Source of the DNA: Opitutaceae bacterium
Lineage (GTDB): Bacteria > Verrucomicrobiota > Verrucomicrobiia > Opitutales > Opitutaceae
Length of the DNA: 64,000 nucleotides
Direction: 5' to 3'
Assembly: GCA_024711005.1 (NCBI GenBank)
Contig: JANJTQ010000182.1
Location: forward strand, 3,294-67,293
The position numbers and the translations under genes are program-made. Below the pieces are notes generated by a model. The model worked only from the letters and a program-made list of their open reading frames with translations, had not been told where the DNA came from and made no database searches. Below, piece after piece: positions 6,001-59,294 of the stretch. The number at the start of each line of letters is the position of its first letter. The stretch's first letter is position 1.

Positions 6001-8488
6001 CTCTCAAACCGCCGGCACCGCGTTCAACGCCACGCTCACTTTTAAGACGATCGATGGACAAACCGCCACGGGCTACAACGGCAACGTGCCCGTCACCGCT
6101 CTGAATGCCGACGGCGCCGCCACGCTGAAAAATGCCCCCATCAATGTCTATGTTTCAGGTGGCGTCAGCACCGCCAGCTACACCGTGCTCACCGCCGGAA
6201 CCGACACCCGGTTGCGTGCCCAGCCCGTCAACTTTGCCGCGGTTGACAGCAATCTCTTCAAGGTAAACCCAGGCCCCGTTGCGGCTCTTCAGGTTGGAAC
6301 CATCCCGGCAACCCAGATCACGGCACAACCGACGACCCTCGCTCTCACCGCGCAGGACGCCTACGGCAACACCGTTACTTCGTTTACCGGCTCGGCCTCG
6401 CTGAGCATCGGCGGCGCGTTCCGCCAGGCAGGCTCGGGTACCCAATCATCCAAGTATCCGCTCCACCCCTACCACGACGAGGATCGCACCCAGATCATCT
6501 ACCTCGCGTCCGAACTCGGAGGAGCCGCCAAGCTGACGGGCGTCGCGCTCAAGGTGACCGCGCCGCTCAATGTCGCGCTGAACAATTGGACGATCCGCAT
6601 CAAGCCCACCGCTGCCGCCAGCTACGCCACCTCCGCCTCCTGGCAAGGATCGGGCTGGACCATCGTCCATCAAGGCACACCGCTGCCTTCAAGTCCCGGC
6701 TGGATCGAGTTCCCGTTCGCAACGCCCTACGACTACAACGGCACCGACAACCTGCTGGTCGATTTCAGCATCAAGAACTCCGGACACCCCAGCACCTACG
6801 GGATGGTCGAGGCAACGACCTCGGCCGACTATCGTGTTATGCACGGTTATGCCGATGGCGCCTACGGCGACCCCCTGAATTGGAACGGTGCCTCCCCGTC
6901 CTATGAACTCAGCACCGTGCGTCCGAACCTTCGTTTCCGCACACAACCGGTTGGCGGCGTCGTCACTCCGGGCAACACGGGCGCCTTCACCGCCGGCGCG
7001 TGGACCGGCCCCGTCACCTTCCTGCAACCGGGCGTCGGCGTTTCCATTCTGGCCACGTCGGGCGTCATCGCTGGGAACTCCAACACACTCGATATCCAAC
7101 TCGCGGCCCCCGTGCTCGCCCCTGAGCCTGCCATCACCGGCGGCACCGCCAATACCCTCGCGTGGACTCCGCCCTCGTTTATCACCGGCACCGCAACCAC
7201 TCAGGTGCAAGCCTCCCCGGAAGACACCTTCGCAGCCCCCGTCACCAGCCCTTGGCTCGACGCAACCACCCACACCGTCTCTCCCTTGACCGAGACCACC
7301 TGGCACTACCGCGCCCGCACCCGGCTGACCGTGCCCTTCACGGACACATGGGAGCAAACCAGCCTGGCAGACTTCTCCACCGGCACGCTCTCGCAGACCT
7401 CCGTGCAAACGAGCCCCGGCAACGTCGTCCTCGCGCTCAACGGCTCCACCTATTTCACGACGGGATCCATTACTTCTCCGCTTATCCAGCCCGCCAATCG
7501 CCAAAGCTGGGGCAAACTCGCCTACGACATCTCCACCCCTAACGGCACCACCCTCACCATCGATGTGCTCGACGGCATCGGCAACCTCCTCGCAGCGGAC
7601 GTGAGTTCAGACATCGATCTCAACCAGTTGCCCGGCGTCAGCGGCCAAATAAACCTGAAGCTCCGCGCCAATCTGCAAACGACCAGCCCATTCCTGACAC
7701 CGAGCCTGCGCGCTTGGACTCTCGGCTGGATCACCCCGCAAAGCCCCGCCATTTACGACAGTGCATGGAGCACCATCCTCACCTCGCTCCAAGACGCCAC
7801 CGCACCGGCGCTTGCGGTCACCTCCTCCGCCAACACCACCACCGCCGCCTACACGCTCACCGGTACAGCCGCGGATGCCAACGGCATTGTCTCCGTGTCC
7901 ATCAACGGACTCACCGCCACCACCGCCGACGGTTACGTAACATGGAACCAGGCCGTGACCCTGCATCCTGGAGCCAATGAATTCTCGCTCGTTGCCTCCG
8001 ATCCGGCCGCTCCCGCCAACACCATCACCACGCCCTTCACCGTCACCTACACACCTCCCGACGTCGATACCGACGGCATGCCCGATGCCTGGGAAGTTGC
8101 GCACGGCCTGGATCCGGAATCCCCCGCCAGCATCAACGGAAGCCTGGGCGACCCCGACAAAGACGGCTTACCCAATCTTCTCGAATACGCCTTCAATCTG
8201 AATCCTTCGCAGCCCGACGCCACGCCGCCCTACTCCACCCAAACCGTCGAGGATCCCGACAGCGGCCACCTCGCGCTCGGGTTCACCTACCGCCGCCTCA
8301 TTCATCCGGGCACGCTCACCTACAGCCTGCTGATTTCATCCAACTTGACCACATGGACCGCGCCCGTTCCCACGCCGGAAGAACTCTCCGTCACGCCCAA
8401 CCCCGACGGTCTCACCGAAACCGTGGTCGTGCGCATCCCGCTGAGTTCCGAACCGGCGTTTGTGCGACTCCAAATCGCAAATCCTTAA
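2..8488 (+). CDS. Giant secreted S8 (subtilisin-like) serine peptidase with Calx-beta/Ig-like repeats, two beta-propeller modules, a DUF11-like domain and a C-terminal D-x-D-x-D-G repeat domain; 5'-truncated by the window edge
   Basis: The frame is open from base 2 (IDHTHPDLAANMW), so the catalytic Asp motif lies just upstream. HGTHVAG, AAGN and GTSMATPHVAG motifs are present. Repeated 'VIPAGxTSVTF' Calx-beta-like units; C-terminal DVDTDGMPDAWE...DPDKDGLPNLLEYA. Confidence 0.92.
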   Translation: MDHTHPDLAANMWTNPGEIAGNNIDDDGNGYVDDVRGWDFVNDDNNPMDDNRHGTHVAGTIGGVGGNSLGVVGVNWQVSLVGLKFLSGSGSGTHSDAVEAVAYATTLGLELTSNSWGGGGYSQALYDAIADANTAGRLFIAAAGNSSRNTDTSPNYPSGYNLPNIIAVAATDHADQLAYFSNYGASTVDLAAPGVNTLSTTPGGTYQSLSGTSMATPHVAGAAALLWAHRPSLTATDIKSALLVSVDTKAHLLTKTVSGGRLNVHSALLSLENLLVSPNSGWSVSVPSEGPIPSTGAAYTLRNLSDSALAWTATVDVPWAQLTVASGVVQPNGTATTTVSLNAAAVQNLPTGTHSGKLRITDVASGLIHVRPLSLNITPPAVFTFDLSSDPGWTRTGQWAFGKPSGLGGGAYGNPDPASGYTGNNVLGVNLMGNYSTTPGGPHTLTAGPFNFTGYAATRLQFRRWLNSDYEPYVSAKVELSTNGTTWQTLWANGSTFVTESAWSLQDIDLAAYADNKPSVSIRWSYTINGGAWPLSGWNIDDIVILGAPPQTLRFDAVGPLNEGAGSSSATLNIKPAPAEPLTIQFTSGTPATVASPASIIVPAGVSSVVVPLSILDNTALDGTRTVLISPSAPGYSAAPLSLTIHDNETATLTLELPAVATEGSTAVGRVSVDTAPTGPITVTLTSDLADAATVPPTVTIPTGATSADFTLSFPDNTRIENSRDATIDASVTGWIGAQETVSVADNDLRALSLSLVGVLAEGRGTVTDGGTLALSGTLTTPLTVTLVSSAPDQLSVAASVVVPAGATSVKFPISLPDDANLDGAQTVTLTASEATFASGETTASVADNDPASFAFDTIPSPQYVNQAFSARIVALDINGAPALGFTGAANLSGTIDATPSSLQPSQTNAFVAGEWTGAITTLAAGENWTLQATYGSVSGASNAFTVRVPVVQIVNLANNDIVYDAGTNRLYASTPSGTIVPIDPATGALDPAITIATTPATLLARATDGSRLWVAHDANAQIIPVSLPDLTVGASFNLGTGSYGQTRAEDIVALPGSPDSLAVARYRSGVSPRHDGVSVYVNGSRLTSSTPNHTGSNSIEPGSAPGRIFGYNNESTEFGSRRLQVSETGITNLDVRSEIATGFGITIHASDDIVAASSGRIYDGESYRILASLPYSGLVRPDATAKRIYLLSDQGGGVRRLRSYDTDRFAEIGSINVSGVSGTPGTLVRWGEAGLAFRTPTQIFILNTVVVPTADSANLQVTQLATPTSPVVGAPINYLVSVRNLGGGDAVSVVLTDTLPAGSTLVEAVASQGSVDSSVSGQVSANIGTIAAGEEATLRLRLSLASPGTVTHTAIATATTGDPDTSNNQSVSTLTASAPGTLSLRRLSIGARDIAYDNITDRLMVTTSNTASTPNSLLRIDPVTLAPYSADYLGDNPGRLKLTNDGQYAYAILNGTFGLARAPIVAGTSPFLNFPVGHTGSTYGLMQAYDIVPVNGRPEALAVARDQASGTVAIYENGIQLSTSTAYYNATSVLVDSPTAQRIYGYNSNNTGFDFYQLNVLANGVSTGATKQDLIESFSVNRLKRAGNLIYTNNGRIIDPEALTLVANLAISGPVEPSFDDDVFYILEGSTLRAYDLVTRQPLGTLALGTLDGTPTNLVRCGGRHLAFTTSTGQLYVLDAPSVVPPPPLRVVLPARLTEGVGTVPGVGQVEILRPSDTDISFQLTTSAPDVLDVTRNLIIPAGQTSVTFDVTVTDNAGLNGTRSVVITPATTATYTPKPATVEVDDDETGTLSLSLPDILLEGSGVIGDIATLTLSAAPIAPVSIALSSSDTTEVQVPATVILPAGETSVTFAVTLPDDDLLDGPQAATITAAVPGYTAAVIEAQVLDNEGTTITLTLPVSATEGSYVYANVTLPGKAVSPVTVTLSSSDTTELGNATGTIPAGQSSGSFYVGGVNDTLTDGAQTVTLTASSPGFTSGSATISITDNDAATASWSTIIGSQTAGTAFNATLTFKTIDGQTATGYNGNVPVTALNADGAATLKNAPINVYVSGGVSTASYTVLTAGTDTRLRAQPVNFAAVDSNLFKVNPGPVAALQVGTIPATQITAQPTTLALTAQDAYGNTVTSFTGSASLSIGGAFRQAGSGTQSSKYPLHPYHDEDRTQIIYLASELGGAAKLTGVALKVTAPLNVALNNWTIRIKPTAAASYATSASWQGSGWTIVHQGTPLPSSPGWIEFPFATPYDYNGTDNLLVDFSIKNSGHPSTYGMVEATTSADYRVMHGYADGAYGDPLNWNGASPSYELSTVRPNLRFRTQPVGGVVTPGNTGAFTAGAWTGPVTFLQPGVGVSILATSGVIAGNSNTLDIQLAAPVLAPEPAITGGTANTLAWTPPSFITGTATTQVQASPEDTFAAPVTSPWLDATTHTVSPLTETTWHYRARTRLTVPFTDTWEQTSLADFSTGTLSQTSVQTSPGNVVLALNGSTYFTTGSITSPLIQPANRQSWGKLAYDISTPNGTTLTIDVLDGIGNLLAADVSSDIDLNQLPGVSGQINLKLRANLQTTSPFLTPSLRAWTLGWITPQSPAIYDSAWSTILTSLQDATAPALAVTSSANTTTAAYTLTGTAADANGIVSVSINGLTATTADGYVTWNQAVTLHPGANEFSLVASDPAAPANTITTPFTVTYTPPDVDTDGMPDAWEVAHGLDPESPASINGSLGDPDKDGLPNLLEYAFNLNPSQPDATPPYSTQTVEDPDSGHLALGFTYRRLIHPGTLTYSLLISSNLTTWTAPVPTPEELSVTPNPDGLTETVVVRIPLSSEPAFVRLQIANP

Positions 8489-8526: not shown

Positions 8527-8547
8527 TTGTCACTTATTAAGTTACAA
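8527..8547. repeat. AT-rich palindromic repeat (family A, TTGTCACTTAWTAAGTGACAA), slightly degenerate copy
   Basis: ttgtcacttattaagttacaa, one mismatch to the other four copies. Confidence 0.8.
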
Positions 8548-8582: not shown

Positions 8583-8605
8583 TTTGTCACTTAATAAGTG
8601 ACAAA
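8583..8605. repeat. Palindromic repeat family A; overlaps the stop codon of the methyltransferase gene
   Basis: tttgtcacttaataagtgacaaa; on the minus strand it reads FVTY* with TAA at 8591-8593. Confidence 0.9.
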
Positions 8606-9376
8606 ATCGGCTTGTTTCACCCGCCTCTCCAAAACCAGCGTCGTGTCGCTGCCTCTGAAGAACTCGTAGTTGACCGCCACCACTTGCGAACGAATGCCGG
8701 CTGCCGCGAGGTCGGTGCGCAGACGTTCGAGTTCCGCGTACGGTCGCCCATCCGGTCCGCATACCGGATGGATCCGCACCTCGTCCCGGCTCACCCGCAC
8801 CAGTTCGCGACACGCCGCGAGGTGAAACGCATAATCAAACAGCCGTTCGTAAATGAAGAGCAGGTGCGCACACAGCACCACGTCGAAACTCCCATCGGCA
8901 AATGGAAGCCGCGGCAACGCACCGCCCACATAACGGTTGTCCAAAAACCCCGCCTCATAGTCCGCTAAAAACTCCTCCGCCGCAGCACGTCGATCGCGCT
9001 CGGCTTCGTCAATCGAACTGAACGACTTCAGCCGAAAGATCTCCGGCTTCGCCCGCATCTGCGCCACCGTCCGCACATAATCAAGCCGCACATACGCCGC
9101 CAAGGTTTCCGCCCGACATCCATAAAGCGGATCAACCGCGGTCGCCCGGATGCCCAGCCGCGTGGCCGCCGACGTGAAGGACGATGGTCCCGCCGCCACA
9201 TCAAGCACCGAGCGCCCGGGCAACGCTTCAAGATCGAGCGGGAAAAACTGTGTATACTCGGCCAGCGAACGGCCAAAAAATGCGACGGAGGATAATTCAA
9301 ACGAAGACAAAACGCCGGACGCGGCGGAGGTAAAAACCGAAGAAGAAACGGATGAGGGATTCGAAAAAGAGTTCAT
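8591..9376 (-). CDS. Class I SAM-dependent methyltransferase, function unknown
   Basis: SAM motif I 'VLDVAAGPSSF', 'LPRLPFADGSFDVVLCAHLLF', N-terminal 'FFGRSLAEY'. Start placed at ATG 9376, downstream of the leader terminator. Confidence 0.85.
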   Translation of the reverse strand: MNSFSNPSSVSSSVFTSAASGVLSSFELSSVAFFGRSLAEYTQFFPLDLEALPGRSVLDVAAGPSSFTSAATRLGIRATAVDPLYGCRAETLAAYVRLDYVRTVAQMRAKPEIFRLKSFSSIDEAERDRRAAAEEFLADYEAGFLDNRYVGGALPRLPFADGSFDVVLCAHLLFIYERLFDYAFHLAACRELVRVSRDEVRIHPVCGPDGRPYAELERLRTDLAAAGIRSQVVAVNYEFFRGSDTTLVLERRVKQADFVTY

Positions 9377-9419
9377 GACGAAGTGGTGATGGAGTTGTGG
9401 ATACACGCCAAAAGGCATG

Positions 9420-9447
9420 AAAAAACCCGGCTCGATTGAGTCGGGTT
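9420..9447 (-). terminator. Intrinsic terminator in the 5' leader of the methyltransferase (attenuator terminator)
   Basis: Minus strand AACCCGACUC-AAUC-GAGCCGGGUU (one mismatch) running into a 6-U tract, about 45 nt before the ATG. Confidence 0.8.
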
Positions 9448-9487
9448 CGGCGGGTTGGAAAACGATGCGGGCGAACAAACGCGCGCG

Positions 9488-24339: not shown

Positions 24340-24993
24340 ATGCGCTTCCGCACCGTGCTCTTCGATTTGGATGGTACCTTGATGGACCACCTCCCCGCGA
24401 TCCACCGTAGCTACTCGCACACGCTGCCGCAGCTCGGACTGCCCGCGCCGACCTACCAGCAGGTCAAACGCGCCATCGGGGGCGGCCTCGAAAACGCCAT
24501 GCTCAACTTCGTCCCCCAGGCGCGTCTCGACGAAGCCCTCGCGATCTATCGCCCGTTCTGGGACGCCACCATGCTCTCGGGCGCCGAACCCATGCCGGGC
24601 GCACTCGCGCTGCTCGAACACCTGAACGCCCGTGGCGTCACTTGCGCCGTGTTTACCAACAAACATGGTCCGTCCGCGCGCGCGGTCTGCGCCCAACTCG
24701 GCCTCACGCCCCGCCTCCGCGAGGTGTTTGGAGCAAAGGACACCCCGTGGCTCAAACCGGACCCCGCGTTCACCGCGCATGCCCTGAAAACCTTGGAGGC
24801 CGATGCTGCCACGACCTGCCTCGTCGGCGACTCGCCGTGGGACGTGCAGGCCGCGCACAATGCGGGGTTCCCCTGTTTCGCCGTCACCACCGGCACGCAC
24901 ACCGCCGACGAGTTACAGGCGGCCGGCGCGGATGCAGTCTATGAGGACCTCGCCACGCTCGGCGCGGCGCAGTTCGGCACTTCCGCAAGGTAG
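24340..24993 (+). CDS. HAD hydrolase (phosphoglycolate phosphatase-like)
   Basis: FDLDGTL, KPDP, VGDSPWD. Confidence 0.9.
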   Translation: MRFRTVLFDLDGTLMDHLPAIHRSYSHTLPQLGLPAPTYQQVKRAIGGGLENAMLNFVPQARLDEALAIYRPFWDATMLSGAEPMPGALALLEHLNARGVTCAVFTNKHGPSARAVCAQLGLTPRLREVFGAKDTPWLKPDPAFTAHALKTLEADAATTCLVGDSPWDVQAAHNAGFPCFAVTTGTHTADELQAAGADAVYEDLATLGAAQFGTSAR

Positions 24994-25042
24994 GGCGATC
25001 CCTCCGGGTGAGCCGCGGCTCGGCGGGACGCCTCGCCCTACC
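24989..25042. repeat. GTAG-type REP-like inverted repeat overlapping the HAD stop codon
   Basis: GGTAGGGCGA ... TCGCCCTACC terminal inverted repeat. Confidence 0.75.
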
Positions 25043-25525: not shown

Positions 25526-25575
25526 TCCCCGACACGGTCACAACCGACCAACGCTGGCAACACCGACCATTCCAC

Positions 25576-25657
25576 CTCTTTCCTCGTTCTCTTAATCTTT
25601 CTCTTTCGTCCGGAACTTCGGATGGGATAAAGAGAAAAATTAAGAGGAAAGAGAAAG
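25576..25657. repeat. Pyrimidine-arm/purine-arm inverted repeat (family B)
   Basis: TCTTTCCTCGTTCTCTTAATCTTTCTCTT ... AAGAGAAAAATTAAGAGGAAAGAGAAAGA. Confidence 0.8.
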
Positions 25658-25751
25658 AATCCTGAACGGCGCCGTGCCCGGATTTTTCCGATCCGACGCA
25701 CGCCCGCGTTTGATTTTTCCCCGGAAGCCGTGTTCATCGTCGGCGAAACAC

Positions 25752-28735: not shown

Positions 28736-29842
28736 TTGGCAAGGCCGGACCGGACCGCCTTCACTCGTTGCTCCATGCCTTGGTCAACCCCTGTCGCTCC
28801 CCGCGGACGCCGCGCCACGCCCGCCCGACCGGCAGTTTCACACACCCGCTGCCGCACGCTGCTGATCATTGACAATCGGCCGCTCCAGAACGCCGCGTGG
28901 TCGGAGTTTCACGCCGCCCGAAAACGCGCCGAAAAAGCCGCCCGGGATCTTCACCGTCACGAACAAACGGATACGGTCGCCTATCAAGCCTGGCTTCACG
29001 GCACCTTCCCTGTTCTGGTCACCACATTGCGCGAACTGCACGAGCAGGTCACCACGAAGGCCCGGCAGGTCGATTCCGTCCAATGGATGGCCGCCCTGAC
29101 CGGCCGGTCACTCAAGAAGCTCTGGCGCGAACTCAAGGAGCGCGAAGCCAATCCCGGGGCATTCGAAGACGAGCCGGATCCCGGCCCTGACGCAGATTCC
29201 GCCCACCCCCGATCGAGAACCTCTGCCGACGACGATGACTTCGATCCGTTCGGAGACGACTTTTTCAACGGACTTTTTGGCGAAGGACCCGGCGAACCGT
29301 TCACCGGTCCCGGTCGCTCACCTGGTGGATCGCACAACGATGCGGACGAACACTCCGTCCCGAGCCGGCGGCGTCCGGCGCCGCCCACCAACGTCGAAGC
29401 GCGAGACCTCTACCGGCGCCTCGTGCAGCACCTGCACCCGGATCGCGGCGGCGACTGGACGCCGGCGCGTGAACGCCTCTGGCATGAAGTCCAGCAAGCT
29501 TGGGCCGCCCGTGACGTAGACTGGCTCTCCCGCCTCGAAATCGATTGGGAAACCGCCAACGACACCCTCCGCCCCGATTCGTCGCTCAGCCGCCTGAGAC
29601 GCGCCATCGCGGAACTCCACGCCGCCCGACGCGACACCGAACGCAAGCTCCGTGATTACCGCAGGTCATTCGCGTGGCGCTTCACGGATTCGGAGAAAAA
29701 ACGTCCCCAGCTTCACCGGCGTGTGGAGACGGATCTCAACGAAGATCTCATCGCGCTCCAGCGGCAGCTCGCCTACCTCAACGCCACCATCGCCGCCTGG
29801 GAAGCCCTGCAGCCTAAACGCCGCCGCCCCGCCCGCCGCTAA
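28736..29842 (+). CDS. Coiled-coil protein with an internal J-like (HPD) domain; start uncertain
   Basis: 'ARDLYRRLVQHLHPDRGG'; acidic/Gly linker. Confidence 0.7.
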   Translation: MARPDRTAFTRCSMPWSTPVAPRGRRATPARPAVSHTRCRTLLIIDNRPLQNAAWSEFHAARKRAEKAARDLHRHEQTDTVAYQAWLHGTFPVLVTTLRELHEQVTTKARQVDSVQWMAALTGRSLKKLWRELKEREANPGAFEDEPDPGPDADSAHPRSRTSADDDDFDPFGDDFFNGLFGEGPGEPFTGPGRSPGGSHNDADEHSVPSRRRPAPPTNVEARDLYRRLVQHLHPDRGGDWTPARERLWHEVQQAWAARDVDWLSRLEIDWETANDTLRPDSSLSRLRRAIAELHAARRDTERKLRDYRRSFAWRFTDSEKKRPQLHRRVETDLNEDLIALQRQLAYLNATIAAWEALQPKRRRPARR

Positions 29843-29893: not shown

Positions 29894-29918
29894 GTTTGTC
29901 ACTTATTAAGTGACAAAC
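29894..29918. repeat. Palindromic repeat family A
   Basis: gtttgtcacttattaagtgacaaac. Confidence 0.9.
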
Positions 29919-34790: not shown

Positions 34791-34893
34791 TCTTTCTCTT
34801 TCCTCTTTATCTTAATCTTTCTCACTCCGCTCCCACCGGTGCCGAAGCCGGCCGGAGCCCGACGAAAGAAAAAGATTAAGATAAAGAGAAAGA
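34791..34893. repeat. Family B inverted repeat
   Basis: TCTTTCTCTTTCCTCTTTATCTTAATCTTTCTC ... GAAAGAAAAAGATTAAGATAAAGAGAAAGA. Confidence 0.8.
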
Positions 34894-36303: not shown

Positions 36304-36372
36304 CTCTTTCGCTTTCCTCTTTATCTTTCTCCCTCCCTGACCAAAGCGAACGATTAAGAGAAAGACGAAAGA
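36304..36372. repeat. Family B inverted repeat (degenerate)
   Basis: TCTTTCGCTTTCCTCTTTATCTTTCTC ... GATTAAGAGAAAGACGAAAGA. Confidence 0.65.
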
Positions 36373-36456
36373 CGGGGACGCCCTATTGAGGGGTCGTTTC
36401 CGTCCTACCTCCGGAGTTGGCTTTTGCCTGACGACCTGAGAGCGTGCCCGCCGCAT

Positions 36457-37870: not shown

Positions 37871-37876
37871 GATTCC

Positions 37877-37978
37877 TTCTCGTTCTCTTACTCGTTCTTC
37901 GTTCTCGTTCTCGAGTTCCGCACCCTCCGCCCGCCGGGCAACCCGAGAACGAGTAAGAGAACGAAGAACGAGAACGAT
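37877..37978. repeat. Family B-like inverted repeat built of CTCGTT/AACGAG hexamers
   Basis: TTCTCGTTCTCTTACTCGTTCTTCGTTCTCG ... CGAGAACGAGTAAGAGAACGAAGAACGAGAACGA. Confidence 0.8.
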
Positions 37979-40750: not shown

Positions 40751-40836
40751 AAAAGGAAGGACCCCGAATCGGGCCCCCCACCCGGTCCAAGGTGGCCAAA
40801 ATGAGGTTAGCTATCTTATTCCACACCAGATGAGCA

Positions 40837-40871
40837 ATCCAGTTTGTCACTTATTAAGTGACAAACTGGAT
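40837..40871. repeat. Palindromic repeat family A, longest copy
   Basis: atccagtttgtcactta-t-taagtgacaaactggat, perfect 17-bp arms. Confidence 0.92.
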
Positions 40872-40958
40872 CGAGTGTTGGGCTTCAACACGGCACCGAG
40901 AATCAGGCAGGCGGTAGCAGATCAGCCTCCAAGAGTAGGGCAAAATTCACCCGCTGCG

Positions 40959-41384: not shown

Positions 41385-41654
41385 ATGGCTGATCTCGTCA
41401 CGCTTTCGTCCCTCGCCGTCGGCTCCAGCGCCGTGTTGCGAGAGTTCCCCAAGCAAGGCGTCGCCTTTCTTCGCCTGCGCGAGATGGGCATGCTACCCGG
41501 CACCACGCTCACCCTCGTCCGCACCGCCCCGCTCGGCGACCCGATCGAGATCAAGGTGCGCGGCTACAGCCTCACCCTTCGCAAATCCGAGGCCGATCAC
41601 GTCATGGTCGAGCCGGCCGCCGGCTCGACCATGAAAATGACCAATTTCCAATGA
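41385..41654 (+). CDS. feoA: Ferrous iron transport protein A (second copy)
   Basis: 'RLREMGMLPG...APLGDPIEIKVRGYSLTLRKSEA'. Confidence 0.93.
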   Translation: MADLVTLSSLAVGSSAVLREFPKQGVAFLRLREMGMLPGTTLTLVRTAPLGDPIEIKVRGYSLTLRKSEADHVMVEPAAGSTMKMTNFQ

Positions 41655-41773
41655 CCACTGCCCAATGGACCATCACGTGAATCTCCGACCTGCTTCGCTC
41701 ACGCCACTCACGCGGCCACGCACTCCACACACAACCCCGTCCACGGGTCATTGGTCATTGGACATTGGTCATT
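41638..41773. repeat. Heptamer (AATGACC/GGTCATT) tandem-repeat inverted element (family D)
   Basis: ATGACCAATTTCCAATGACC ... GGTCATTGGTCATTGGACATTGGTCATT. Confidence 0.75.
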
Positions 41774-41798
41774 CCTGCTCAACCGGCGAGGCGCGCAC

Positions 41799-43928
41799 AT
41801 GAACCCTCCGCCCACCCAACCCGCTCCCGCGCGCGCCCCGGCTTCGGTCTACGCTCTTGTCGGCAATCCGAACTGCGGCAAATCCACGCTCTTCAACGCA
41901 CTCACCGGCCTGAAACAAAAGGTGGGCAACTACCCGGGCGTCACCGTCGAACGCAAGGTCGGCACCACCTATACGCAACACGGGCATCCGCTCACGCTCA
42001 TCGACCTGCCGGGAACCTACTCCCTCGCCGCGCGCTCCCCCGACGAGGCCGTGACCCGCGACGTGCTTCTGGGTCGTCGAGCCGACACCGCGATGCCGGA
42101 TCGCATTGTCTGCGTCGTCGATGCCACCAACCTCGAACGCAATCTCTACCTCGTTCACCAGATCCTCGATCTCGGTCGTCCCGTAATTCTCGTCCTCAAC
42201 ATGATGGACGTCGCCGAGCAGGCCGGACTCAAGATCCACACCTCGCGCCTCGAGCACATCCTCGGCATCCCGGTGATCGCCTGCGCCGCCTCGAGCGGAC
42301 GCGGTCTCATCGATCTCAAGCTCGCCCTCAGCCGCACCGACCTGCCGCTCTCGCGTCATGCGTGGGACATCCCGCCGGCGATCGCGCCCGCGGTTTCGGA
42401 GTTGCAGGCCTCGCTCCAGGACAACGACGACAAGCCTCCGCTCATCGCCCGGGCCGAGGCGTTGTTGCTCCTCACCGACCAGGACAGCGTGCGCGTGGCC
42501 GGCTCGACCCCGCTCTCCGCCCGCACGCGGGAAATCCTCCAGCACTGGGAAAACCGCTGGGCTGCGGACGGCACCGACTGGGCCGCCGCGCTCGTCAACG
42601 CCCGCTACGACAGCATCGGCCTTCTCACCGCCGACATCGTCAGCACCGCCTCGACCGCACCGGTCGGCCCAAGCCGCAGCGATCGCATCGACGCCTGGGT
42701 CACGCATCCCGTCTGGGGCTGGTGCATCTTCGGCGTGATCATGGCGACGATGTTTCTGAGCATCTTCACCTTCGCCGGCATTCCGATGGGCTGGATCGAA
42801 AGCCTCGTCGCCACGATCTCGGCAGGCGTCTCCGATCTTATTCCGCCCGGCGAGTTGCATGACCTGATCATCGACGGCGCCATCTCCGGCGTGGAAGGCG
42901 TGATCATTTTTCTCCCTCAGATTCTGATTTTGTTTCTCTTCATCGGACTGTTGGAGAGCACGGGCTACATGGCGCGCGCCGCCTTCATCATGGACCGCCT
43001 GATGAGCAAAGTGGGCCTCAACGGCCGCAGCTTTATTCCGCTGCTCGGCTCCTATGCCTGCGCGATTCCCGGCATCATGGCGGCGCGCACGATCGAGCAA
43101 CCCAAGGACCGTCTCGTCACCATCCTTGTCGCGCCTTTCATGAGTTGCTCGGCGCGCCTGCCCGTTTACCTGCTGCTGATCGCCGCGCTCGTACCCGAAG
43201 AGCAAGTGCCCGTCGGACCGAAGATCCTCATCATGCTGCTCATGTATGCGCTCGGCACCTTCGGCGCGTTTGGGTTCGCGTGGTTGTTTAAGAAGACACT
43301 CCTGCGCGGCGCGCCTCCGCTGATGATCATGGAGCTGCCGCCTTATCGTCTGCCGCGGATACGCGACGTGTTGCTGCAGATGATCGAGCGCGGCGGTTTG
43401 TTCGTGAAGCGCGCGGGCACGATCATTCTCGGCCTCTCCATCGTGCTCTGGTTCTTGGCCAATTATCCGAAGGTTCCTGAGAACCAGCCCGAGGTGGATC
43501 CACTCTCCTACAGCATGGCGGGTCGCGCCGGCCATGCCCTTGAGCCGGTGATCGCCCCGCTGGGCTTCGATTGGCGCATCGGCATCGGACTCATCCAATC
43601 GTTCGCCGCGCGCGAGGTGTTCAACAGCGCGATGGGCGTGATTTTCGCGGTCGAAGAAACCGGCGACGAAGAGGAAACCCGCACCCATCTGCGCGACGCG
43701 TTGCGCGCCGCCGAACGACCGGACGGGAGCAAGCTCTTTACCCCGTTGATCTGTCTCAACCTGATGGTGTTTTATGTCTTCGCGATGCAGTGCATCAGCA
43801 CGATCGCCGTCGTCAAGCGCGAGACCAACTCCTGGCGCTGGCCGTTGTTCCAACTGGGATACATGACGGGCTTCGCGTGGTTCGTCTGCCTGCTCATCTA
43901 CCAAGTCGGCCACACGTTGGGCTATTGA
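41799..43928 (+). CDS. feoB: Ferrous iron transporter B
   Basis: GNPNCGKS, GNYPGVTVE, DLPG, NMMD, 'PFMSCSARLP', 'AREVF'. Confidence 0.96.
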   Translation: MNPPPTQPAPARAPASVYALVGNPNCGKSTLFNALTGLKQKVGNYPGVTVERKVGTTYTQHGHPLTLIDLPGTYSLAARSPDEAVTRDVLLGRRADTAMPDRIVCVVDATNLERNLYLVHQILDLGRPVILVLNMMDVAEQAGLKIHTSRLEHILGIPVIACAASSGRGLIDLKLALSRTDLPLSRHAWDIPPAIAPAVSELQASLQDNDDKPPLIARAEALLLLTDQDSVRVAGSTPLSARTREILQHWENRWAADGTDWAAALVNARYDSIGLLTADIVSTASTAPVGPSRSDRIDAWVTHPVWGWCIFGVIMATMFLSIFTFAGIPMGWIESLVATISAGVSDLIPPGELHDLIIDGAISGVEGVIIFLPQILILFLFIGLLESTGYMARAAFIMDRLMSKVGLNGRSFIPLLGSYACAIPGIMAARTIEQPKDRLVTILVAPFMSCSARLPVYLLLIAALVPEEQVPVGPKILIMLLMYALGTFGAFGFAWLFKKTLLRGAPPLMIMELPPYRLPRIRDVLLQMIERGGLFVKRAGTIILGLSIVLWFLANYPKVPENQPEVDPLSYSMAGRAGHALEPVIAPLGFDWRIGIGLIQSFAAREVFNSAMGVIFAVEETGDEEETRTHLRDALRAAERPDGSKLFTPLICLNLMVFYVFAMQCISTIAVVKRETNSWRWPLFQLGYMTGFAWFVCLLIYQVGHTLGY

Positions 43929-53070: not shown

Positions 53071-54747
53071 GTGTCTCCGGATAACGCCAACATCGCCCGT
53101 CACCTCGCCCACATGGCTGCGCGGCAGCCTCACACCCCCGCGCTGAAAATTCCCCGCGGCCGCACCCGCTCGGGCGACATCGACTATCTCTCGCTCTCCT
53201 TCGCCGAACTGGCCGCCGAAGTCGCCGCCTGGCGGGCCACGTTGGTCGCGCGCAACGTGCGCTCCGGCGACCGCGTCCTCGTGATGGTAAAGCCCGGCCT
53301 GCCCCTCATTGCCGCCGCCTTCGCCCTTTTCAGCCACGGCGCCGTACCGGTCGTCATCGACCCTGGCATGGGACGCAAAAGCTTCCTCGCTTGCGTCGAA
53401 CGCTCCGCCCCCCGCGCGCTTCTCGGCATCCCGCTGGCCCGCATCATCAGCCATATTTATCGAAAAGCCTTCCGCTCCGTCGAGGTGCGCATCCCCGCCA
53501 GCAGTTCCCCCACCGCGCGGATGCGCACCGAATCTGCTCCTTCGAACGCAAAACTCCAGATGGTCGAGAGCGCCCCTTCCGATCTCGCCGCCATTCTTTT
53601 CACCTCCGGCTCCACCGGGACACCCAAAGGCGTGCGCTACTCGCACGGCATGTTCAACGCGCAAGTGGAGCTCATCCGCGCCGCCTACAACATCCAGCCC
53701 GGCGAGATCGACCTGCCCATGCTGCCGGTATTCGCCCTGTTTAATCCCGCCCTTGGCATGACCACCATCGTGCCGGAGATCGACCCGAGCCACCCGGCCT
53801 CGGTCGATCCCCAAAAAATCATTCAGGCCATCCGCCAGGAACACGTCACCAGCTCCTTCGGTTCCCCCACCCTCTGGCGCAAGATCGCCGTCCACTGTCA
53901 CCGACATCAGATCGGGTTGCCCACCATGAAACGCGTGCTCTGCGCCGGAGCGCCCGTGCCGCCGGACCTGTGGAGCCTGATGATCCCGGTGCTGCCCAAC
54001 GGCGCCCTCCACAGTCCCTACGGAGCAACCGAATCGCTTCCCGTCAGCACCATCAGCGCCGAGGAAATTCTCGCCGGCCCCGCCGAGGCCGCCCAACACG
54101 GCGCCGGCACGTGCATCGGCCGCCCCCTTCCCGCCAACGAGGTCAGGATCATCGCGCTCACCGACACGCCCATCGCCCACCTCGCCGACACCCGCGAACT
54201 CCCCGTCGGCCAGATCGGCGAAATCATTGTCCGCGGCCCGACCGTGACCCACGCCTACGATGGCCTGCCCGAAGCCACCGCCGCCGCCAAAATCACGAAC
54301 TCCGCAAACGGCGAAATCTGGCACCGCTTGGGCGACGCCGGTTATCTCGATGCCGACGGCCGACTCTGGTTCTGCGGACGCAAAGCCGAGCGCGTCGACA
54401 CCACCGCCGGCCCCCTCCACACCGAACAGGTTGAACCCATTTTCAACGCCCATGCCAACGTACGGCGCTCGGCGCTCATCGGCCTCGGCGAACGCGGACG
54501 CCAACGCCTCGCCGTCGTGATCGAACCGGTCTCCGCCGGGCTGATTCGCACCAGCACCGACTGTCGCCGGTTCGCGCGCGAGTTGCGCGAAATCGCCAAA
54601 CGCTTCCCGCACACCTCGGGGATCAAGCTCTACTATTTCCACGAACGCTTCCCGGTCGACGTACGCCACAACGCCAAAATCCATCGTCTCGCCCTCGCCC
54701 GCTGGGCCGTCACCGCAAAAGGCTACGAATCCGACCCCAAACGCTGA
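53071..54747 (+). CDS. oleC: OleC-like adenylating enzyme (olefin beta-lactone synthetase family)
   Basis: FTSGSTGTPKG, PYGATESLPV, 'GAGTCIG', 'WHRLGDAG', 'FPVDVRHNAKI'. Confidence 0.85.
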   Translation: MSPDNANIARHLAHMAARQPHTPALKIPRGRTRSGDIDYLSLSFAELAAEVAAWRATLVARNVRSGDRVLVMVKPGLPLIAAAFALFSHGAVPVVIDPGMGRKSFLACVERSAPRALLGIPLARIISHIYRKAFRSVEVRIPASSSPTARMRTESAPSNAKLQMVESAPSDLAAILFTSGSTGTPKGVRYSHGMFNAQVELIRAAYNIQPGEIDLPMLPVFALFNPALGMTTIVPEIDPSHPASVDPQKIIQAIRQEHVTSSFGSPTLWRKIAVHCHRHQIGLPTMKRVLCAGAPVPPDLWSLMIPVLPNGALHSPYGATESLPVSTISAEEILAGPAEAAQHGAGTCIGRPLPANEVRIIALTDTPIAHLADTRELPVGQIGEIIVRGPTVTHAYDGLPEATAAAKITNSANGEIWHRLGDAGYLDADGRLWFCGRKAERVDTTAGPLHTEQVEPIFNAHANVRRSALIGLGERGRQRLAVVIEPVSAGLIRTSTDCRRFARELREIAKRFPHTSGIKLYYFHERFPVDVRHNAKIHRLALARWAVTAKGYESDPKR

Positions 54748-54767: not shown

Positions 54768-54886
54768 GGTAGGCCGCCTGCTTGCAGGCGCGGTTCGGAG
54801 CGCGAACCGATGATGGACTTTCGCCACGCCCGCAATACGGCCTTGCACGGAGAATTTATTACCGAAGACCACCCGTCACTCCCTAC
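54768..54886. repeat. GTAG-type REP-like doublet between oleC and oleD
   Basis: GGTAGG followed by CGCCTGC-TT-GCAGGCG; distal end CTCCCTAC. Confidence 0.6.
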
Positions 54887-54918: not shown

Positions 54919-56073
54919 GTGTCCTCCACGCTTAACAGCACCTCCGCACTCGTCACCGGCGGCACCGGCTTCCTCGGTCGCCGCATCGTCGAGCGACTGC
55001 TTGCGCAAGGCCGTCCCGTCACCGTGCTCGGCCGCACACCCGCGCCCGACCTGGAAGCGCGCGGCGTGCGCTTTATCCGCGCCTCACTCGACGACACCCA
55101 GGCCGTGCAGGCCGCCTGCCGCGGGATAGCAACGGTGTTTCACGTCGCCGCAAAAGTAGGGGTATGGGGGCGCTACGAGGATTTTTATCGCACCAACGTC
55201 CTCGGCACACGCGCACTGCTCGCCGGTTGCCGCGAGCACGGCGTCACCCGTTTCGTCCACACGAGCACGCCCAGCGTAGTGTATAACGGATACGACCTTG
55301 CCGGTGCCGACGAAAGCCTCCCGCTCACCTCCCGTTGCCCCAGCCCGTATCCGTTGACCAAGGCCCTCGCCGAACGCGATGTGCTCGCCGCCAACACGGA
55401 GGCTCTGCGCACGGTGGCCCTTCGTCCCCATCTCATCTGGGGTGCGGGTGATCCGCATCTCGTTCCCCGGGTCCTCGCCCGTGCGCGCGCCGGCCGGCTC
55501 CGCATCATCGGCAAAGGACAAAACCGGGTCGACATGGTCCACGTCGAAAACGCCGTCGATGCCCACCTCGCCGCCGAACTCGCCCTCCTCGACCCCACCG
55601 GACATCGCCCATCCCAACCCGATCCCGCTTGTCACTTAATAAGTGACAAAACTCCGGAAGAGCTTGGATACAAAAAAGTAGATAGGGACAACCCGGGGCC
55701 ATGCGCGGCCGGAAAGGCTTATTTCATCACCAATGGCGAGCCCGTTGTGCTGTGGGATTGGATCAACGGCCTGCTCGTCGGGCTGGGTGAACCGCCGGTA
55801 ACCAAACGTATTCCGCTGGGCGCGGCCTCGGTGATCGGCGCTCTGTGCGAAGCCGCCTGGCGCGTGCAGCCCCTCAAAGGCGAACCACCCATGACCCGCT
55901 TCATCGCCGCCGAACTCGCAAAGGACCACTGGTTCTCCATCGACGCCGCCCGGCGCGATTTAAACTACGTTCCGCGCATCAGCATGGCGGAGGGCACGGC
56001 GGAGCTGATCGCGTCATTGAAGCGGCCTGGTTCCTCCGACCTGAGCACGGCGTCCGCGGGATTCTCAGTGTAA
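54919..56073 (+). CDS. oleD: OleD-like NAD-dependent 3-beta-HSD/epimerase family reductase, with an in-frame repeat insertion
   Basis: TGGTGFLG, HTSTPSV, YPLTK, LRPHLIWG, AGKAYFITNGEP, 'PPMTRF'; directly after oleC. Confidence 0.85.
   Translation: MSSTLNSTSALVTGGTGFLGRRIVERLLAQGRPVTVLGRTPAPDLEARGVRFIRASLDDTQAVQAACRGIATVFHVAAKVGVWGRYEDFYRTNVLGTRALLAGCREHGVTRFVHTSTPSVVYNGYDLAGADESLPLTSRCPSPYPLTKALAERDVLAANTEALRTVALRPHLIWGAGDPHLVPRVLARARAGRLRIIGKGQNRVDMVHVENAVDAHLAAELALLDPTGHRPSQPDPACHLISDKTPEELGYKKVDRDNPGPCAAGKAYFITNGEPVVLWDWINGLLVGLGEPPVTKRIPLGAASVIGALCEAAWRVQPLKGEPPMTRFIAAELAKDHWFSIDAARRDLNYVPRISMAEGTAELIASLKRPGSSDLSTASAGFSV
55629..55649. repeat. Palindromic repeat family A inside the oleD coding sequence
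   Basis: ttgtcacttaataagtgacaa, translated as CHLISDK. Confidence 0.9.
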
Positions 56074-58255: not shown

Positions 58256-58294
58256 CATAAAAAACAAAAATCGCCCGCCTTTTAAAAGCGGGCG
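58256..58294 (-). terminator. Intrinsic terminator after the PEP-CTERM gene
   Basis: Minus strand cgcccgctttt-aa-aaggcgggcg followed by atttttgtttttt. Confidence 0.85.
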
Positions 58295-58328: not shown

Positions 58329-59294
58329 TCAGGCGCGTGAGCGACGGCGGCGAACCACCATCGCGCCGACGAGACCCAAACCACCGGCGATCATCGCGTA
58401 GGTGGAGGGCTCGGGGATGGCGGCGGTGATTACGCTGCCGAGGTCCGTTCCATAACGGAGCTCATCGATGAGACCGGTGAATTGGAATCCGTTCTGAGCA
58501 GGGGCGTTTGCGGCGAGAGAGAGATACTTGTCTGAATCGAAGGTATACGTGCCGCTGCCAACCGTGTCGGACACGACACGCAGTGCGTAGGCATTCAAAT
58601 TGGCTTCGAGACCGAGACCCGTCGTGAACCAATTATTGTAGCCGGCCTCGGTGAATACCCATGTGGTCGCAACACCCGACCCGGACGTCAGATCGGCCCC
58701 GACATTCGTGTACCGGGACAGTACCAGATAGTTGGTGCTGGTCGCGAACGCGGTGTTGGGAGAAGCAACGCCCGCGGTGTCGTAGGCGGCGACGACTTTG
58801 CGGTCGCTCGCGAGCGTATTGCTCGCGACACGATTCAAAAACTGCGTGGCTCGCGCCGTCCCAGAGGTTCCGACGCCTTGCTCCAAGTATCCTCCATTCG
58901 CGAGACTCATGGTGGTGTAGTTCGCCAGATAACTGCTCCACAGCGTGCCGGTTGCAGCCGTGTTTAATTTAACCGACGCAACCGTCAGGGCAGTGCCTCC
59001 GCTGTAAGTGGACGAGAGCAACAAGGCGCCACCCGAGCTGGTCGCGAAATTATCGCCGAAGCTTAAGCCCGCGGATTGGTATACGGCGGAGGCCGCTCCG
59101 GTGTTCGTCACCGCCCAAGCGCCGGTGGTTCCTGTCGCGGTGCTCGTCGCGCCGCTGATGCTGGCACCGTTCGTGACGCTGTAATTGAATCCTTCGTAAA
59201 CAAGCAGCTCAGCGTTTAGTGAGGCTTGGGATAACACAAAGGCGGCAGCAAAGACCGCCGGACAGACAAGTTTTGAGGAGTAGGGTGTCTTCAC
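58329..59294 (-). CDS. PEP-CTERM sorted surface protein
   Basis: Signal peptide; C-terminal IPEPSTYAMIAGGLGLVGAMVVRRRR. Confidence 0.93.
   Translation of the reverse strand: MKTPYSSKLVCPAVFAAAFVLSQASLNAELLVYEGFNYSVTNGASISGATSTATGTTGAWAVTNTGAASAVYQSAGLSFGDNFATSSGGALLLSSTYSGGTALTVASVKLNTAATGTLWSSYLANYTTMSLANGGYLEQGVGTSGTARATQFLNRVASNTLASDRKVVAAYDTAGVASPNTAFATSTNYLVLSRYTNVGADLTSGSGVATTWVFTEAGYNNWFTTGLGLEANLNAYALRVVSDTVGSGTYTFDSDKYLSLAANAPAQNGFQFTGLIDELRYGTDLGSVITAAIPEPSTYAMIAGGLGLVGAMVVRRRRSRA

Follow-up and report, generated by a model that had tools for sequence, protein, structure and literature searches.

The palindromic elements of Rickettsia (RPE), reportedly described by Ogata et al. in 2000, are dispersed palindromic repeats that occur both between genes and, in frame, within conserved genes, and the RPE-1 unit of about 100-150 bp adds 30-50 residues to its host protein as one unit. 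RPE-1, RPE-4, and RPE-6 were mentioned by Di Nocera, De Gregorio and Rocco (2013; PMC3733652), in whose survey Opitutus terrae carried the most intragenic repetitive extragenic palindromes (REPs) among the genomes covered. These intragenic REPs belonged to GC-rich GTAG families, especially GTAG-17, GTAG-18, and GTAG-19, and they are tabulated in about 70 rows, where the peptides include GTGVPPV, VGPALAAG, and HGRHARAT (PMC3733652). Another related class, the REPIN-RAYT systems, consists of short hairpin repeats that are often arranged as doublets (Bertels and Rainey 2011, PMC3116915). Here, a stretch of 64,000 nucleotides of contig JANJTQ010000182.1 from an Opitutaceae bacterium (assembly GCA_024711005.1), referred to as the window, was analyzed. 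The element in question was a short AT-rich palindrome lying in frame within the gene of an OleD-like reductase, and its core recurred in the window and in many metagenome contigs.

The host gene (54919..56073, + strand, 384 aa) was assigned by Pfam and NCBIfam to the NAD-dependent 3-beta-HSD/epimerase family. The protein belonged to the extended short-chain dehydrogenase/reductase (SDR) family, as shown by its match to 3Beta_HSD (PF01073, 8.2e-47; 160 bits versus a cut-off of 22), and the best-scoring NCBIfam model was OleD (NF042422, 2-alkyl-3-oxoalkanoate reductase) with 379.5 bits. Since this score was below the curated equivalog cut-off of 580 bits and the match was split in two by the insert, the product was named "OleD-like". 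All columns invariant in 32 orthologues were kept by the protein, including TGGTGFLG of the NAD site and the YxxxK residues Y144-x3-K148. Compared with the syntenic relative L204, codon positions 1+2 were 0.91 identical and position 3 was 0.58 identical; at the sequence level, the gene evolves under purifying selection. The fold of the modeled reductase matched NSDHL and GalE-type structures.

The initial annotation had described an AT-richer peptide inserted in frame between AHLAAELALL and AAGKAYF of this protein and centered on a palindrome read as CHLISDK. The open reading frame (ORF) indeed reads ...AHLAAELALL DPTGHRPSQPDPACHLISDKTPEELGYKKVDRDNPGPC AAGKAYF..., with the peptide at about 55591-55704, within 2 nt of the place first given. 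In the orthologue alignment and the AlphaFold model, the expanded loop comprised 41 codons (123 bp; 55588..55710, + strand) between the helix ...AELAL and the strand GKAYFIT, and the 41 residues between ...AHLAAELAL and GKAYFIT were LDPTGHRPSQPDPACHLISDKTPEELGYKKVDRDNPGPCAA. The GC content was 0.47-0.52 over 55610-55729 versus 0.63-0.75 on both sides, which agreed with the AT-richness noted before. The core palindrome TTGTCACTTAATAAGTGACAA was located at 55629..55649, could fold as a hairpin with a 9-bp stem and a 3-nt loop, and was read C-H-L-I-S-D-(K) as proposed. Frame 2 through the core gave the CHLISDK type (CHLISD, or CHLLSD on the opposite strand), whereas frames 1 and 3 contained TGA and TAA in both orientations, so only one frame is tolerated, as had been claimed. 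The calculated free energy of the hairpin was -11.6 kcal/mol as RNA (z = -3.6) and -7.4 kcal/mol as DNA. The CHLISDK loop peptide is a predicted translation product. The region including the insert showed zero differences in two independent sediment-metagenome assemblies, and the insert was therefore not an assembly artefact; read depth peaked over the palindrome because other contigs of the same samples also carried it. In a soil metatranscriptome, contigs of related OleD genes were present and diverged at the loop.

The insert was not a single repeat unit. The outer arms of the element, CCCAACCCGATCCCGC ... AAACTCCGG (55609..55657), were recognized by comparison with other copies and were degenerate, so that the window copy kept its 21-bp core intact with decayed outer arms; its left flank still matched the copy at 40843-40876 at 91% complementarity. 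The AT-rich tail TPEELGYKKVDRDNPGPCAA (55650..55710, + strand) was unique, non-repeat DNA for which no second copy was found. On neither side of the core (42 nt on the left, approximately 60 nt on the right) did the sequence have another copy in the window or in the 204 fetched loci, and of the 123 bp of the loop no more than about 23-31 bp were repeated DNA. The palindrome was followed by a tail of 20-21 aa with little mutual similarity in P0003, P0004, P0006, P0009, and P0014, and the closest syntenic relative, L204, had no such tail. Because the flanks of the palindrome in the loop were unique, the "30-aa insert" is a composite of one repeat unit and fast-evolving loop sequence accumulated at the same place. 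On the same ground, the idea that all 114 bp of the insert form one repeat unit was rejected. The earlier attribution of the roughly 30-residue loop to the palindrome thus stood as far as the palindrome lies in the loop, but the repeat accounts for only about 8-10 of the approximately 33 extra residues. In the AlphaFold model, examined as the initial annotation had suggested, residues 224-264 formed a coil, mostly with a pLDDT below 50, between the helix 203-223 and the strand 266-270, and the PDB homologues aligned through residue 222 and ended at the insert. The model itself was only moderate (mean pLDDT 64.8). Together with the general layout of extended SDR proteins, it suggests that the loop is placed on the protein surface.

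To define the empty and filled states of the site, 80 OleD-like loci were taken from species-representative genomes and their products were aligned. The segment between "AL" and "G[KR]AYF" was 6-8 residues long in 60 OleD loci (Lysobacteraceae, Geobacteraceae, Planctomycetota, and other Opitutales) versus 41 in the window, and the expectation that orthologues usually have a short segment held. In close Opitutaceae relatives, the same segment varied from 5 to 82 residues. Among 135 close orthologues, defined by at most 26% amino-acid difference from the window protein, 31 were empty, with a segment of 5-9 residues such as ALDGPAAGRAYF; this was the alignment check proposed by the initial annotation, and the equally long loop that it had named as a refutation was not seen in these 31 palindrome-free sequences. 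One recognizable palindrome-encoded motif was present in 42 of the 135 and two in 38, and the remaining 24 had a long loop with no recognizable motif. With one or two palindromes in 80/135 close orthologues, the insertion was neither recent nor private to this genome. The first copy began exactly two residues past "AL" in 63 of 105 long loops, and about 12 related sequences shared the architecture TV-CHLLDD-K...CHLIDD-KPSGAGAEP. Several stages of turnover were found at the site. L201 and L202 carried two palindrome copies each in the OleD loop, and L203 carried a single hybrid copy whose left flank matched copy 1 and whose right flank matched copy 2 of these two loci, which indicated a deletion between the two copies. 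L004 and L006 had GC-enriched, decayed relics of the palindrome in the loop, and in L204 (86% amino-acid identity) the orthologous place was taken by a near-perfect palindrome of 43 bp.

Additional palindromes and a broken gene were also observed among the OleD orthologues. The match of the orthologue in L032 (10001-11231) was spread over two frames and broke near residue 200; this gene could be a pseudogene or the result of faulty assembly. Its 82-residue loop contained several degenerate units (…NPNSQLLDPKSQLSGSKS…CQLIDA…CNVIRDK). A further palindrome lay just upstream of the OleD start in several relatives (L001 9978-10006, L008 9979-9999), and in P0007, P0008, P0009, P0018, P0030, and P0034 this upstream palindrome was translated by the gene callers as part of the N-terminus (...NPKCHLIGDTS...). 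These N-terminal extensions are probably annotation artefacts.

The palindrome in the loop belonged to a dispersed family. With at most two mismatches, the core 21-mer recurred at 8527, 8584, 29896, and 40844, whereas the shuffled window sequence gave 0, that is, 5 copies in the 64-kb window versus 0 expected. The copy at 8527..8547, with one uncompensated change, was downstream of a 2817-aa gene ending at 8488 and paired at a distance of 57 bp with the next copy (8583..8605). The center of the latter was the stop codon of a methyltransferase-like ORF (8591..9478, - strand; Methyltransf_11, 5.4e-07), which ended in ...KQADFVTY*, with the last four codons and the TAA coming from the palindrome. 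The C-terminus of a gene can thus likewise be defined by the repeat, and the FVTY* ends for which a search had been recommended do occur. The copy at 29894..29918 was intergenic, 54 nt past the stop of ORF 28736..29842. The copy at 40835..40873, between the gene of an AraC-family regulator and feoA, was a 39-bp palindrome with one mismatch and 35 of its bp perfect, and its RNA hairpin was calculated at -23.3 kcal/mol (z = -7.5).

A metagenome scan found the exact core in at least 120 contigs. Altogether, 135 copies from metagenome contigs were analyzed; counts for solo copies refer to 97, and flank and tag statistics were made on 90. The extended consensus of the solo copies was cCCAAnCCnnnT-TTGTCACTTAWTAAGTGACAA-AnnnGGnTTGGg with a consensus flank of CCAGT/ACTGG, and the triplet beside the core varied among copies and was complementary within each (agt/act, cat/atg, ggt/acc, and cac/gtg). 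The median palindrome length was 25 bp (interquartile range 23-33, maximum 59). From these sequences, the general form of the family would be a core of 21-23 bp with arms reaching at most 59 bp, TGTMAY-NNW-W-WNN-RTKACA. Related variants (TGTCACGTAATACGTGACA, TGTCACCTAATAGGTGACA, TGTAACCTAATAGGTTACA, TGTCATCTAATAGATGACA, and TTTCACGTAATACGTGAAA) coexisted, sometimes on one contig. Most copies were single and intergenic, and in rough gene calls there was no clear bias in gene context (tandem 19, divergent 10, convergent 8) and no 3'-end preference in one-sided context (22 before a 5' end versus 17 after a 3' end). Within 15 nt of the palindrome, GTAG was found in 1/90 copies and CGTC in 3-4/90, and only 3/90 copies were followed by a T-run. 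Direct repeats flanking the palindromes were not above chance, and the copies lacked terminal inverted repeats with a target-site duplication. At gathering thresholds, Rfam matched nothing in the window, and the exact core was absent among viral contigs. In the fetched loci, the ORFs enclosed by two palindromes at a distance of 0.4-2.5 kb were read, with no domain search run, and none looked like a small transposase. A 210-bp element was found in about 38 copies in metagenome Ga0163144 (L082, L085, L090, L099, L109, L113, and about 30 other loci). It has terminal inverted repeats, GGGGTGCAACTGAAAGTGAAGTCA and TGACTTCACTTTCAATTACACCC, contains two family palindromes, TTTGTCACGTAATACGTGACAAA and TTTGTCACTTAATAAGTGACAAA, 55 bp apart, and looks like a miniature inverted-repeat transposable element (MITE) that incorporated family palindromes. 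The spacing of doublets was 37-66 bp, and neither the spacing nor the spacer sequence was conserved outside this MITE.

Three other identities were considered for the palindromes. An intrinsic terminator was rejected because the stem was AT-rich, T-runs were rare, and the 3'-end bias was absent. A mini-CRISPR, suggested by the 57-bp pair 8527/8584, was also rejected, since the copies were mostly single and the mode at 54-56 bp was due to the one 210-bp MITE. An operator or parS-like site for a dimeric protein was considered unlikely, given that the inner triplets co-vary as base pairs and variants coexist in a genome.

The initial annotation had also proposed that, as in Rickettsia, such repeats enter verrucomicrobial proteins in frame, and this was supported. 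At least 15 of the 97 solo copies were inside genes in an open frame, and at least 14 other proteins carried the repeat in frame; the extension to the proteome depends on translated metagenome contigs. All ten host proteins checked were confirmed by Pfam, namely a P-type ATPase, a class-V aminotransferase, the methionyl-tRNA formyltransferase Fmt, an OmpR-type response regulator with the copy in the inter-domain linker, a methyltransferase, an M32 carboxypeptidase, an HhH-GPD glycosylase, a chorismate-binding enzyme with the copy between two domains, a DUF2071 protein, and a TPR membrane protein with two copies. A protein-database search with the synthetic query PNPVCHLISDK... returned 4 word-sharing candidates and no match. 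Rough gene calls covered 76% of the window; if genes take up a share of the genome that is usual in bacteria, copies are strongly underrepresented within them, which would fit the expectation that selection removes most genic insertions. In a class-V aminotransferase of about 397 aa in L088, two in-frame variants about 500 bp apart were observed, read CHLLSDK and SNPIGYF.

Compared with the described systems, the family resembled RPE in being a dispersed palindromic repeat that is both intergenic and in frame within conserved genes, always in a stop-free frame and in loops of conserved proteins, with insertions common to related species and with peptides as by-products. It differed from RPE-1 in size, since the repeat unit was 21-45 bp (7-15 residues) and the remaining loop was unique, and in its host, a free-living member of the Verrucomicrobiota with a high-GC genome instead of the Alphaproteobacteria. 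The two were unrelated in sequence as far as could be judged, the family being set apart without direct comparison to an RPE reference. With the GTAG REPs of Opitutus terrae it shared the bacterial family, palindromes of 20-40 bp in single units and dimers, many in-frame copies in known proteins, and several families per genome, and with the GTAG/CGTC REPs in general a palindromic unit of 20-40 bp at high copy number. Unlike these, it had no GTAG or CGTC tag beside the stem and no preferred location downstream of genes, and instead of GC-rich stem-loops it formed AT-rich near-perfect palindromes with an apex of 1-3 nt and different peptides. Doublets, vertical inheritance, and long persistence at orthologous positions were in common with REPIN-RAYT systems, but most copies of the family were single, the doublet spacing was not conserved, and in the fetched loci no RAYT, nor any other transposase present in single copy, was identified. 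The palindrome family is thus outside the RPE and GTAG/CGTC families. In-frame REPs in Opitutaceae are already described, and it is the AT-rich palindrome family that appears to be new; in the literature collection searched, no paper had its core sequence or its peptide. The statement that the system was undescribed therefore seems to hold for the core and the peptide, but not for in-frame REPs, which were known in Opitutus terrae (PMC3733652).

To examine the pairing of the two arms, 17 OleD-loop copies at orthologous codon positions, relics included, were aligned. Paired cells amounted to 80% versus 66% in shuffles (0/500) and 29-40% with slid partners, and 39 cells were changed on both sides versus 16 expected from shuffles (0/500). 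The same was visible in the protein alignment, whose sequences were ascertained by OleD homology only. At codons 2 and 6, the residues were H..D in 101 sequences, N..Y in 12, and H..Y in 0; V at codon 3 was paired with R at codon 5 in 10 of 13 sequences, and L or P with R in 0 of 79. The residue pairs that changed together (H..D to N..Y, L..G to V..R, and C..T/K to F..E) were the pairs predicted from the palindrome, and selection on a Cys/His motif was therefore ruled out; at the peptide level, it was rejected by the N..Y, F..E, and V..R variants. The constraint thus acts on nucleic-acid pairing and not on the peptide. The notion of a system generating CHL(I/L)SDK peptides was right about the in-frame repeats, but the peptide is a by-product, and the variants CNLIGY, FHVIRE, and CHVIRD track the pairing.

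The cores were also conserved in sequence. Between the window and L204, 20 of 21 core positions were identical and only the center base differed, while fourfold sites of OleD were 0.53 identical. Between L201 and L202, the two cores were identical at 20/21 and 21/21 positions (41/42), whereas the fourfold sites reached an identity of 0.71 and the spacer between the palindromes one of 0.61. Under the fourfold-site identities, the probability is about 3e-5 for at least 20/21 and about 1e-5 for at least 41/42. In an otherwise identical copy, L201 and L202 differed by a compensated pair (GTTTG..CAAAC against GATTG..CAATC), which indicated a change in place. Both loci also kept an orthologous intergenic copy of a different variant, and the variant therefore tracks the locus and not the genome. 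In the Ripley model, quasi-palindromes are corrected by template switching during replication, and such a process would copy changes of one arm to the other and produce compensated pairs without selection. However, it cannot alone explain 20/21 core identity at 0.53 fourfold identity. Because arm-to-arm correction preserves the symmetry without slowing divergence, either selection or conversion from other copies must act as well.

The probable explanation, in our view, is that a REP-like palindrome entered a permissive loop in frame long ago and has since undergone birth-and-death turnover. It would be a member of a REP-like family whose short, AT-rich, and nearly perfect palindromes are dispersed in Opitutaceae, and a copy within a gene would survive only if it is read in the one frame lacking stops and if the loop or linker around it can take up additional residues. 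The element may have entered the loop of the reductase that joins the final helix of the Rossmann half to the β-strand after it, probably as a doublet, in the ancestor of a large Opitutaceae clade. Since then, copies at the site would have been kept, decayed, deleted between copies, or changed by paired complementary substitutions, with the spacer and tail drifting freely. In the window lineage, the second copy would be intact and the first gone or unrecognizable, and the CHLISDK stretch with its flanks would be a surface loop without fixed structure. That the element is mobile, that it entered only once and long ago, and that it is neutral for the enzyme is what we infer here, and several points weigh against the explanation. 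Neither a transposase, nor a target-site duplication, nor a clean presence/absence polymorphism between near-identical genomes was found. The surface location depends on a poor model (mean pLDDT 64.8) and on the general extended SDR layout. The cores were far more conserved than neutral sites, which simple junk DNA does not predict, and the locus-tracking variants in L201 and L202 argue against genome-wide homogenization.

The palindromes could also be more than passive junk and form a structure-constrained element, kept at orthologous genic and intergenic positions past synonymous saturation and evolving by compensated pairs. Such an element would be either a new GTAG-less persistent intragenomic replicator with its own enzyme or a hairpin or cruciform site used by the host. 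We regard this only as a tentative possibility; if it is true, a nucleic-acid constraint would be written across protein loops. The main rival, clearly less probable than the favored explanation, is a functional nucleic-acid element, a DNA cruciform or hairpin or an RNA hairpin, that is bound by a host or element factor and selected in place, including in oleD, with the loop accommodating it under dual constraint. Core conservation far above the fourfold-site rate (about 3e-5 and about 1e-5), co-varying arms at orthologous sites, the orthologous intergenic copies kept with their own variant in L201 and L202, and a recognizable copy kept by 80/135 orthologues while the spacers drift would all be expected of it. 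However, the palindrome is dispensable for OleD, as 31 close orthologues were empty and 24 had motif-free loops. Copies also lay in all contexts (tandem, divergent, convergent, and unrelated genes) with no apparent positional logic, several variants per genome fit poorly to a single sequence-specific binding protein, Rfam gave no match, and gene conversion from other copies could also give the conservation.

It is unlikely that the OleD loop was a hot spot hit many times independently, for example at an ancestral …AAC AAC CCC GG… (ENNPG) resembling the outer arm CCCAAnCC. In its favor, the palindrome variant at the site differed between lineages, copies began 2, 5, or 14-16 residues past "AL", many loops had two copies, and more distant Opitutales kept "NP" in a short loop (DRLENNPG, DKSENNPG, and DANPIAAS). 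Against repeated hits, the AL+2 offset was identical in 63/105 long loops, related sequences shared both variant and architecture (the TV-CHLLDD...CHLIDD-KPSGAGAEP group), and the compensated pair of L201 and L202 in an otherwise identical copy spoke for change in place. The orthologue pairs of Fmt, P-type ATPase, and glycosylase that carried a same-site copy were ascertained by exact core match and are hence biased. An ordinary lineage-specific variable loop, with the palindrome coincidental or a peptide-selected motif such as a Cys/His metal site, is highly improbable: C-H-x-x-x-D recurred in many orthologues, but the identical 21-mer was found in intergenic DNA and unrelated genes, and the paired residue changes destroy any common chemistry. 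A pseudogene or an assembly artefact in the insert, for which the sub-threshold, split OleD match could be cited, is equally improbable in view of the intact 384-codon frame with all invariant residues under purifying selection (0.91 at codon positions 1+2 versus 0.58 at position 3), the same sequence in two independent assemblies, and same-site inserts in orthologues from many samples; at the level of the sequence, the pseudogene that the initial annotation had allowed for was thereby contradicted.

With this palindrome, the phenomenon of RPE and REPs within proteins reaches free-living Verrucomicrobiota through a second, unrelated family of repeats. The loop of this one enzyme provides a natural series of empty, one-copy, two-copy, hybrid, and decayed sites over more than 130 orthologues, which makes the birth, decay, between-copy deletion, and compensatory change of an in-frame palindrome measurable, and since the core is conserved beyond the neutral rate, one has to ask what keeps such elements in place. 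Annotators of Opitutaceae should expect peptides of the CH[LPV][LIM][GSDR]D type, false N-terminal extensions, and stop codons supplied by the repeat.

Directly upstream of the oleD-like gene was the gene of an OleC-like AMP-dependent ligase (53071..54747, + strand; AMP-binding, 2.7e-51), which scored 652 bits with NCBIfam NF006754, above the cut-off, and 571 bits with the olefin beta-lactone synthetase model, under its 900-bit cut-off. The OleC-like and OleD-like genes were conserved neighbors in the window and in L201-L204, flanked by RNase D-like, DUF456, and HemN-like genes, and no OleA or OleB homologues adjoined them in the gene neighborhoods of the window or the syntenic loci L201-L204. 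The assignment of the pair to an olefin pathway is uncertain because both genes scored under the curated NCBIfam cut-offs for this pathway.

Other repeats were also present in the window. A second, unrelated AT-rich family, CTCTTTCCTCGTTCTCTTAATCTTTCTC, was found in several intergenic regions (25571-25658, 34791-34891, 36304-36378, and 37872-37977), where its units formed inverted pairs with a distance of about 40-50 bp. A 35-nt inverted repeat (41636-41670 and 41739-41773; 86% complementary), built of CCAATGACCA-like units, spanned the end of the second feoA and the start of a 725-aa ORF (41751..43928), which is probably a putative feoB; a unit similar to CCAATGACCA was tandemly repeated in metagenome locus L165, translating as GHWSLVIGHWSLVIG. 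GC-rich palindromes beginning with GGTAGG were located at 24989-25042 and 54770-54810, for example GGTAGGGCGA...TCGCCCTACC, and GGTAGGCCGCCTGCTTGCAGGCG followed by CGGTTCGGAGCGCGAACCG in the OleC-OleD spacer. Because these palindromes resemble the REPs of Opitutus terrae, the genome probably also carries GTAG-tagged REPs of this kind. Finally, the GC-rich palindrome CGCCCGCCTTTTAAAAGCGGGCG (58272-58294), unrelated to the family and with an A/T run at its center, may be a terminator because it adjoins the 3' end of the minus-strand ORF 58329..59294.

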